Assembly: GCA_964456885.1 (NCBI GenBank)
Contig: CAYWDE010000001.1
Coordinates: 112 to 64,111 of the forward strand
From: an uncultured bacterium
Lineage (GTDB): Bacteria; Chlamydiota; Chlamydiia; Chlamydiales; SM23-39
Direction of reading: 5' to 3'
Length of the DNA: 64,000 bases
Every line of letters starts with the position of its first letter. Position 1 is the stretch's first letter. Below, piece after piece: positions 11,286-12,600 of the stretch. Under the pieces are notes generated by a model. The model was given only the letters and a program-made list of their open reading frames with translations. It was not told the DNA's origin and did no database searches. The position numbers were made by a program, and so were the translations under genes.

Positions 11286-12263
11286 TTACCCATTAGGATA
11301 GTTTTTTCTACACAGCTGCTCTATAGTTACTTCTAAAAAATCCCGTCTTTTATAAATTGCTTGAATTTTCTCTCTCTCTTTTTTATACAGCTCAAGGGTA
11401 TCATCATCTTCAAAAGTTAAAAATCCAGGGATTAAAAATGTATTTAATCCCTGTTCTCTAAAGATTTGAGACCATAGACTCGAATTTTCCTTATAAAAAT
11501 CAAGAGATCCTTTGTAGGGGAGGCTTTTTAAGAATTGAGCAACCTTTCCTTCTTTTCCTTCCATGTCCCCTTTCCAGGTAAAAAATAGGGTGTTTTTTTT
11601 CCCGAAACCGAAAAGAAGTCCTAAAGCTATGGTTGCATCTCTCTGTTCTTGGCTGGAACGTTCGTCTTTTGAATTGCCATCAAAAAATTTATTCCAGAAT
11701 AAAGAATCTGGATTCTCTAAATCAAAAACAATCTCAAGTGGATGAAAATCTATTCCTGTAAATGACCTAAAAAAATCATAGTTTTCTGCTAAAACTAAGG
11801 CAGTTTTTATAACGTTAGCAAAGATGAAAAAATGTAGTGATAAATTATGTGTTGCTCCCTCATCTAAAATGGAGATATTCAGTGGTTTCCTGATCAGCAT
11901 ATATTGGCTGACTGGGAAATCTTTTTTAATTTTTTCCCATGCTCTCCAACCTTCCTCAGGTTCCCTCCAAAAGTTCTCCTTCTTCTTAGGTGTAGAATCT
12001 AAGAATGCTGTGCATAATGGCTTGCTTCCAAAAAGGACATAAGCGCCCGATTCTTCATCCATGATCTGATGGAACAAGTAATATAAAGCCCCTCTCTCTT
12101 TTTTTGTGAGACCATCGAGAGGTTTTTTACTGCTTTGGCACCCACAACAAATGGCTAAAAAAACTATGAGAAAAAAATACAATTTATGTAGGATAGTTTT
12201 TCTATTAAAAGGAAGGTTTAAAATGCTCAAAGTTTTTCTGTTTTTTTGTACTGTTTTTTCCAC
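11286..12263 (-). CDS. L-family lipoprotein-like protein, paralog 1 (unknown function)
   Basis: GTG start with AAGGAG SD. Signal plus Cys cluster LAICCGC. Shares YVLFGSKP, ALVLAENYDFF, DFHPLEIVFDLEN, LFGFGKKN..F.TWKG and IYKRRDFLE with ORFs 21331-22374 and 23485-24372. Confidence 0.75.
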   Translation of the reverse strand: MEKTVQKNRKTLSILNLPFNRKTILHKLYFFLIVFLAICCGCQSSKKPLDGLTKKERGALYYLFHQIMDEESGAYVLFGSKPLCTAFLDSTPKKKENFWREPEEGWRAWEKIKKDFPVSQYMLIRKPLNISILDEGATHNLSLHFFIFANVIKTALVLAENYDFFRSFTGIDFHPLEIVFDLENPDSLFWNKFFDGNSKDERSSQEQRDATIALGLLFGFGKKNTLFFTWKGDMEGKEGKVAQFLKSLPYKGSLDFYKENSSLWSQIFREQGLNTFLIPGFLTFEDDDTLELYKKEREKIQAIYKRRDFLEVTIEQLCRKNYPNG

Positions 12264-12600
12264 TTTCTCCTTCGCTACTGAAAATGAAGAGTTGATGGTA
12301 TCCCAAAGTTTTATTTATCAGCAAATTGTTGAAAAGCAGCCAGACGCGGTTTTTTTCTGTACAGAAGAGCGGCTTTATCTAAGGCCTGAAAAAGTGATTC
12401 TAACTGATCGAGGAATCTTTGTGGGAGAAGTGGAAATCCCTACACTCCATTCAGATACAATGGGCTGCTATGTTTTAAGCAAGTCGAGCGGAAAATGGGT
12501 TTGCTGTACGAGGGACTGTCCAAACTTCAGAAACACCTTTCGTAATGAGTCTGGGTATTGTCCTGGGTGCGGTCGCAAAGGCTTGAGGTATGATGATTAA
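12223..12600 (+). CDS. S-family small secreted protein with C-terminal Cys-ribbon, paralog 1
   Basis: ATG at 12223 after AGGAAGG. Signal peptide MLKVFLFFCTVFSTFSFA. LYLRPEKVILTDRGIFV. C-terminal WVCCTRDC...YCPGC. Confidence 0.7.
   Translation: MLKVFLFFCTVFSTFSFATENEELMVSQSFIYQQIVEKQPDAVFFCTEERLYLRPEKVILTDRGIFVGEVEIPTLHSDTMGCYVLSKSSGKWVCCTRDCPNFRNTFRNESGYCPGCGRKGLRYDD

Follow-up and report, generated by a model that had tools for sequence, protein, structure and literature searches.

Head-to-head genes for a predicted lipoprotein and a predicted secreted cysteine-knuckle protein that overlap at their 5' coding ends in Chlamydiota

The stretch of DNA analysed here (the window) comprises 64,000 nucleotides of contig CAYWDE010000001.1 (assembly GCA_964456885.1) from an uncultured bacterium of the Chlamydiota. 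It carries two divergently transcribed genes, L1 and S1, the namesakes of two protein families, L and S. L1 encodes a predicted lipoprotein and S1 a small, predicted secreted protein, and their coding sequences run into each other head to head (Table 1). L1 begins at a GTG (12263) preceded by AAGGAG and S1 at an ATG (12223) preceded by AGGAAGG, an arrangement in which 41 bp are common to both genes. A first-pass annotation, made before any database search, had described these starts, ribosome-binding sites and the overlap, and its coordinates proved exact on both the open reading frame (ORF) list and the raw sequence. A phase check of the shared stretch placed the third codon positions of the two genes opposite one another, with positions 1 and 2 likewise opposed. 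Each ribosome-binding site lies within the coding sequence of the partner. Conserved families, export signals and confident fold predictions mark L1 and S1 as genuine protein-coding genes, and for the predicted starts the sharing of nucleotides by their 5' coding ends is confirmed.

The S1 start appears secure in view of its ATG, its ribosome-binding site, a canonical cleavable signal peptide, and the equivalent ATG and hydrophobic stretch found in homologues. An ATG at the equivalent position, followed by a hydrophobic stretch, is present in 19/19 aligned homologues, and nearly all of these have an AGGAGG-like site 5–9 nt upstream of it. The S1 homologue P0057 (77% identity) is likewise 125 amino acids (aa) long. 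For L1, the only canonical starts located 5' of the conserved basic N-region and hydrophobic region of the signal peptide are GTG 12263 and TTG 12230. The overlap with S1 measures 41 bp from the former and 8 bp from the latter, and 8 bp is the minimum for any canonical start that retains the charged N-region. TTG 12230 has no ribosome-binding site, and its conservation is attributable to S1 codons 2–3, which occupy the opposite strand. GTG 12263 aligns codon for codon with the ATG of locus L026, the closest full relative, where the overlap has the same 41 bp and the same phase. It is also kept as GTG in L082, a 77%-identical fragment. Insertions and deletions at the junction among close relatives measure 3 and 6 nt.

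An alternative is that there is no coding overlap in the window, with L1 starting at TTG 12182 or at Met68 and the 41 bp serving as L1 leader only. The database call for L1 (P0001, 258 aa) does begin at Met68, and GTG is a minority start codon. In addition, the N-terminal extension of L lies across the ribosome-binding site and start of S, so its conservation could stem from S. A start at Met68 would, however, drop the signal peptide and lipobox that are kept in the whole family, and because the conserved signal peptide is cut off, P0001 reads as a truncation. A start at TTG 12182 would give a signal peptide without a charged N-region. GTG 12263 has its AAGGAG at ideal spacing besides its counterparts in L026 and L082, the indels in this stretch are multiples of 3, and elsewhere the sole possible L start forces an overlap (11 bp in L014, 44 bp in L015, 41 bp in L016 and 18 bp in L021). 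We consider the absence of a coding overlap very improbable. The database call for S1 (P0056, 144 aa) starts at ATG 12166, which has no ribosome-binding site, and is judged to be an over-extension. Automatic calling in effect erased the overlap by shortening L and lengthening S. In 3/3 looked-up contigs the S gene was uncalled despite an intact ORF. Since standard gene callers systematically truncate L and over-extend or omit S, S is likely to be largely missing from annotations of chlamydial metagenome-assembled genomes (MAGs).

The junction was compared across 50 non-redundant divergent L/S pairs by enumerating the start codons 5' of each hydrophobic region. With the best-supported starts, 36 pairs overlap, 10 have gaps of 0–40 bp and four have gaps above 40 bp. 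When the most downstream start retaining one basic residue is taken instead, the corresponding numbers are 27, 19 and 4. The commonest state, seen in 12 pairs, is a 2-bp overlap in which two ATGs share a CATG; here the S ribosome-binding site (CCTCC or CTCC on the L strand) forms L codons 2–5. Essentially all loci place the S ribosome-binding site (CCTCC on the L strand) within L codons 2–18. Of 33 reliably placed overlaps, 26 are 2 mod 3 in length and so have the wobble-to-wobble phase; the count is inflated by relatedness, yet it shows that this phase is maintained. A tight or overlapping head-to-head junction is, as far as the predicted starts tell, kept family-wide over deep divergence, and the overlap itself is typical of the family and not obligatory. 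The tightness of the L1/S1 junction goes beyond chance, because the junction recurs in 46 of the 50 homologous pairs, and spacers of 148–413 bp separate the genes in each of the six remaining divergent ORF pairs of the window. In L082, the closest relative of S1 (positions 120–135, compared with window positions 12219–12230), an ATG in the L frame shares CATG with the S ATG, alongside the conserved upstream GTG, hence the 41-bp and 2-bp forms of the overlap may interconvert via single substitutions.

Homologous loci were drawn from GTDB representative genomes (25 loci), metagenomes (53 loci) and exact protein look-up (four). All named sources of L are Chlamydiota MAGs, or bins mislabelled as Verrucomicrobiota or Acidobacteria, and every product is annotated as 'hypothetical protein'. 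Pairing was counted with hidden Markov model (HMM) searches of six-frame ORFs around 72 non-redundant L genes having at least 450 bp of upstream DNA. S is divergent and directly upstream of L in 57 of the 72, upstream on the same strand (tandem) in six, and not found nearby in eight; locus L005 adds a seventh tandem by eye. S thus adjoins L in 63–64 of 72 loci. Flanking genes vary by locus (thyX and uvrB, pyr genes, dsbA/dsbB), and because these neighbours are not conserved the pair can be regarded as a self-contained unit. Distance matrices of L and S gave a Mantel r of 0.81, with 0/2000 permutations as high, and the three nearest neighbours of L1 are also those of S1, at almost equal identities. 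On this comparative evidence L and S are inherited together and duplicated together. The earlier proposal that the L–S linkage is functional and not accidental is borne out by this adjacency in many Chlamydiota MAGs and by the co-diversification, the HMM searches having found L and S co-inherited across other genomes.

The pairing had also been said to recur twice at 20.7–24.8 kb of the window. The recurrence of the pair stands, and the overlap does not extend to it: L2 and S2 are divergent with a 166-bp spacer, and S3 and L3 are in tandem. The window belongs to an F-type conjugative element; in other genomes the L/S pair is chromosomal, amid housekeeping genes. An L subfamily with the motif GIYTLWGAHKP (L041, L044 and L052) and locus L079, which has two tandem L copies, show no detectable S nearby, so S may be dispensable to some members of the L family.

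The family alignment (A3) shows a conserved signal peptide with basic N-region, hydrophobic region and lipobox ahead of mature L, in keeping with the first-pass description of L as lipoprotein-like. Many homologues have a canonical lipobox (LTGC, LSAC, LIGC, LSGC, LTAC). That of L1, CCG↓C, has Cys in place of L/V/I at position –3 (consensus [LVI][ASTVI][GAS]C), and L3 has no lipobox. An indexed search returned 55 relatives of L1, and a profile search of 1.84 billion representatives gave 1,634 L clusters at 50% identity; across the divergent pairs, L identities are as low as about 22%. The AlphaFold2 model of L1 (pLDDT 83.6, pTM 0.78) shows a helical body together with a long beta-hairpin and, at the N-terminus, a membrane helix. 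No catalytic signature is recognisable in the invariant motifs VLFGSKP(L/M)C and GLLFGFGxxN. For the six window proteins (L1–L3 and S1–S3), Pfam and NCBIfam scans gave nothing above threshold. PDB profile searches with L and S returned only noise or sub-threshold zinc-ribbon matches, and Foldseek (E ≤ 0.001) found no match for L or S in the PDB, nor for L in BFVD. It had been remarked that neither protein carries a nameable motif, and indeed no named family in Pfam, NCBIfam, the PDB or Foldseek searches matches either one. With family and structure searches negative, function cannot be transferred by homology. L is best read as a lipoprotein of ~280 aa when mature, with a predicted alpha/beta fold that has no match, probably anchored to the membrane by its lipid.

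A single-sequence search with S1 recovered 2 proteins only, and a profile was needed to collect the family. Members were aligned (A4 and A6), and S was located beside L by HMM in other loci. Most S homologues carry CxxC...CxxC at the C-terminus, with the knuckles spaced as in C4 zinc ribbons (10–20 residues). The alignment supports both the C-terminal four-Cys knuckle and the signal peptide, in agreement with the initial view of S1 as a secreted Cys-ribbon protein. In the AlphaFold2 model of S1, core residues 28–88 (pLDDT ~90) form one helix and seven short strands, and the Cys-knuckle tail is poorly modelled. The C-terminus weakly resembles many C4 zinc-ribbon families, all below threshold; among the curated ones the best match was Zn_ribbon_RanBP (E = 6.5e-4, 19 bits against a cut-off of 27), and a Pfam scan of 19 S members yielded nothing above threshold. 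Since S is exported, its cysteines may form two disulfides rather than bind metal. The best reading of S is a soluble periplasmic protein of ~100 aa, with a small beta-rich predicted core and a C-terminal four-Cys knuckle. Several MAGs hold S copies that are frameshift-split, without the Cys-knuckle tail or without a proper signal peptide, next to an intact L (Table 1). These copies reflect either assembly errors or a decay of S that is faster than that of L.

Expression of S requires a leader of at least ~15 nt, which is antisense to the first codons of L, and in 46 of the 50 pairs the start-to-start space is too small for two promoters and two leaders. As the S ribosome-binding site lies inside L codons, the geometry suggests that each promoter is inside the partner gene and that the 5' ends of the two mRNAs are complementary. 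On balance, we think it probable that L and S are a co-inherited envelope-protein pair, encoded by a head-to-head two-gene module with antisense-coupled expression. Such a module would be autonomous within Chlamydiota, with both products Sec-exported to the envelope and each promoter located within the signal-peptide coding region of the partner. The L and S mRNAs would have perfectly complementary 5' ends spanning both translation-initiation regions. RNA polymerase heading one way would occlude the opposite promoter, and any pairing of the two leaders would either hide both ribosome-binding sites or create a target for RNase III. The junction would determine the L:S ratio in the manner of a divergent excludon, and the two proteins would act together in the envelope. 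Co-acting envelope proteins, one lipid-anchored and one soluble, are also what the predicted protein features best suggest.

Two other arrangements were rejected. A hairpin in its own mRNA that sequesters each ribosome-binding site is not indicated, as folding of the 5' regions is no stronger than that of shuffled sequence (z of +1.4 and +2.2 for the window, near 0 for L010 and L029). A bidirectional promoter with a shared –10 element is ruled out on geometry, the start codons overlapping by 41 bp and the ribosome-binding sites lying further upstream. Only a few pairs with gaps of 11–28 bp could fit a shared –10 promoter, and their spacers hold ribosome-binding sites.

Divergent excludons are opposite-strand neighbours with overlapping 5' transcripts that have been mapped in Listeria, E. 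coli and S. aureus, the divergent form being rare, with 16 in E. coli (PMC12288877). The L/S pair is similar in having genes on opposite strands with very short or absent spacing, and overlap of the 5' transcripts would be obligatory. Divergent excludons produce transcriptional interference and RNase III-sensitive duplexes, and the same outcome would be expected for L/S. Unlike excludons, which are defined by RNA-seq and usually overlap in untranslated regions, L and S overlap at their coding starts and are known here from sequence alone. The layout is also conserved over a whole protein-family pair, in contrast to single-locus excludons. In shared –10 bidirectional promoters, start sites are back to back at 10, 18 or 23 bp, which keeps the two transcripts from overlapping (Warman et al. 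2021; PMC12825309). These give compact divergent transcription from a short AT-rich region with mutually exclusive polymerase orientations, and L/S is comparable in its compactness. The L and S start sites would instead have to cross over, and the geometry is incompatible in 36 of the 50 pairs.

Head-to-head coding overlaps are usually dismissed as start-codon errors. Palleja et al. are said to have reported in 2008 that head-to-head is the rarest overlap class and that many annotated cases are start-codon mispredictions. Unlike such mispredicted cases, the L/S overlap is backed by comparative data, and automatic callers remove it instead of creating it. Head-to-head overlapping genes are recognised as a class of opposite-strand overlaps that share 5' nucleotides (PMC3887535), as do L and S at their 5' ends on opposite strands. 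Members of this class whose leaders are antisense-coupled are already known, if rare. The novelty, on the predicted starts, lies in a deeply conserved, family-wide head-to-head overlap with a recurring CATG minimal form. OmcA and OmcB of the Chlamydiota are likewise encoded by adjacent genes, one for a lipoprotein and one for a cysteine-rich exported envelope protein, in the co-directional omcAB operon. The L/S pair resembles them in adjacency and in combining a lipoprotein with a Cys-rich exported protein, which we offer as a lead only. No sequence or fold relationship was detected between the two systems, and in L/S the lipoprotein is larger than its partner S. The presence of DsbB or DsbA genes close to some L/S loci bears only circumstantially on this parallel.

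Several observations weigh against antisense-coupled expression of the L/S module. The L1 start is its weaker point, being less certain than the S1 start, and most homologues have a weak L ribosome-binding site or none. The length of the overlap varies across the family, the extremes being gaps of as much as 28 bp and overlaps of 47 bp or longer. A consensus sigma-70 scan of positions 11000–12900 gave a lower number of sites than shuffled sequence did, with none at the junction and no convincing one within either gene. In a positional profile of 42 pairs, –10-like hexamers were ~3-fold enriched 14–55 nt 5' of S, confounded by the AT-rich signal-peptide codons; as the enrichment is weak and composition-confounded, the promoter cannot be placed from it. 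The minority of pairs with S and L in tandem imply co-expression, which is uneasy with strict mutual exclusion. The spacer of pair 2 is ordinary (166 bp) and indicates that a precise regulatory device is not obligatory for function; variable overlap length and the tandem pairs point the same way.

Part of this evidence could be read as neutral compaction. Genuine partners would share one very short control region through which they are co-regulated, the shared codons would be start-codon drift tolerated in streamlined genomes, and the antisense ends would have no regulatory role. Junction geometry grades continuously between a 28-bp gap and overlaps of 47 bp or longer, tandem S–L operons and the 166-bp spacer variant occur even within the window, and other divergent pairs in related genomes are down to 60–75 bp apart. 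The wobble-to-wobble phase also minimises mutual cost, which makes drift into overlap cheap. Compaction sits poorly with a spacer of ≤40 bp or an overlap in 46/50 pairs over a divergence that takes L identities to about 22%, and with the 148–413 bp seen between other divergent pairs of the window. Furthermore, ≤40 bp is too short for two promoters plus leaders, so that expression of both genes would inevitably entail overlapping transcripts and competing polymerases. The range of overlap lengths and the existence of tandem pairs leave room for compaction, although we rate it as unlikely, and both also speak against strict either/or expression.

A further possibility is that L and S have opposing activities, L being an envelope enzyme or toxin and S its secreted inhibitor or immunity protein. 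The junction would then be a bistable either/or switch, possibly linked to development in chlamydiae. Mutual exclusion would be expected to show just such a geometry, with promoters that interpenetrate and ribosome-binding sites that are complementary, and the excludon literature ties such layouts to opposing functions (PMC12288877). Several diverged paralogous pairs occur per genome, three of them here on the conjugative element, and L and S co-diversify tightly. The tandem arrangement in 6–7 loci implies co-transcription, L has no recognisable catalytic motif or toxin fold, and 8/72 L genes are without a nearby S. Both proteins are exported, so the logic of classical cytoplasmic toxin–antitoxin pairs does not apply. 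We regard opposing activities as improbable, and a module of co-acting partners with antisense-coupled expression remains our preferred reading.

The element surrounding the three L/S pairs has transfer genes for a TraD-like protein, a 1522-aa MobA/TraI relaxase-helicase, a TrwB/TraD coupling protein, TraG, TraH, TraN and TraC. Its accessory genes include a resolvase and DsbB, and its cargo a copper oxidase, a P-type ATPase and AbiE toxin–antitoxin pairs. The cargo region that holds all three L/S pairs is flanked by the relaxase gene on one side and the coupling-protein gene on the other. A tblastn search of PLSDB plasmids with L1 gave no match, and the element is thus not a catalogued plasmid; an Rfam scan of the whole window also found no match. 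Directly 3' of S1 is a frameshift-split TnpB gene, and a 374-aa ORF (12527–13651, minus strand) that overlaps the 3' end of S1 looks like an antisense shadow of TnpB and not a gene. The AbiEii genes (at least one with an AbiEi-type partner) and the ATPase_2/AAA_16 genes have the appearance of a defence or stability cluster. The biotin-protein-ligase-like gene between pairs 2 and 3 has an apparent N-terminal signal or hydrophobic segment, and both its location and its N-terminus are unusual for a BirA-type enzyme. In locus L028 (4599–5617), a DsbA-like/DsbB pair is directly beside the L/S pair, which may be relevant to exported S or may be a coincidence.

Table 1. Features of the L1/S1 locus, its paralogues and the surrounding element (window coordinates unless a locus is named)
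Feature	Coordinates	Strand	Remarks
L1 coding sequence	11286..12263	minus	325 aa, GTG start 12263; ORF list and raw sequence
S1 coding sequence	12223..12600	plus	125 aa, ATG 12223, stop 12598-12600; ORF list and raw sequence
L1 ribosome-binding site AAGGAG	12267-12272	minus	3 nt 5' of GTG; inside S1 codons 15-17 (F-S-F, signal peptide)
S1 ribosome-binding site AGGAAGG	12210-12216	plus	6 nt 5' of ATG; inside L1 codons 16-18 (N-L-P)
Shared L1/S1 stretch	12223-12263	both	41 bp; L1 codons 1-14 and S1 codons 1-14
L1 signal peptide (predicted)	12138..12263	minus	long hydrophilic N-region, basic NRKTILHK, hydrophobic LYFFLIVFLAI, lipobox-like CCG↓C, putative lipidated Cys42
S1 signal peptide MLKVFLFFCTVFSTFSFA (predicted)	12223..12276	plus	signal-peptidase-I type site SFA↓T (cleavage MLKVFLFFCTVFSTFSFA↓TE); read from sequence
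S1 cysteine knuckles	12502..12570	plus	CC-x3-C ... C-x2-C (Cys94, 95, 99, 113, 116), zinc-ribbon-like; alignment A4
S2, S1 paralogue	20739..21164	minus	141 aa; represents the most populous S subfamily
L2, L1 paralogue	~21331-22374	plus	37% identity; divergent from S2, 166-bp spacer, no overlap
S3, S1 paralogue	24421..24756	minus	111 aa; upstream of L3, same strand
L3, L1 paralogue	23485..24372	minus	27% identity; tandem with S3 upstream, 48-bp spacer
Conjugative-element genes, notable stretches	2424-9603, 28074-29837, 39715-48290, 56674-59292
DsbB homologue	3850-4365	minus	beside transfer genes
TnpB (IS605 OrfB / Cas12f-like), frameshift-split	12716-13501 (OrfB_IS605) and 13568-13822 (TNB domain)	plus	directly 3' of S1
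Biotin-protein-ligase-like gene (BPL_LplA_LipB and BPL_C)	22572-23468	plus	between L/S pairs 2 and 3
Two AbiEii nucleotidyltransferase toxin genes and two paralogous ATPase_2/AAA_16 genes	32093-33567, 37346-38802, 29964-31412, 34628-36130	minus, plus, minus, minus
Multicopper oxidase fused to DUF2231 membrane domain	49498-51243	minus
Heavy-metal P-type ATPase with HMBD domain	53116-55296	plus
Defective S copies	L001 3496-4122, L007 3466-3879, L009 2434-2748, L063 2220-2688, L008 3465-3872	minus

With ~50 loci, the L/S junction provides a real head-to-head overlap whose minimal form writes the ribosome-binding site of one gene into codons 2–5 of its partner. It offers a compact natural test case for how two promoters and two translation-initiation regions coexist on ~40 bp, as well as for the coupling of partner proteins by antisense leaders and for the evolution of signal peptides under dual coding. 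The pair also defines two sizeable Chlamydiota envelope families that have no database model or matched fold. It is conceivable, although we doubt it strongly, that the junction is a conserved, self-contained toggle, built on fully interlocking promoters and ribosome-binding sites antisense to each other, by which individual cells or developmental stages make either the lipoprotein or its secreted Cys-knuckle partner. If true, this would be a previously undescribed switch of envelope composition, contained within the first ~15 codons of two genes in hundreds of lineages.

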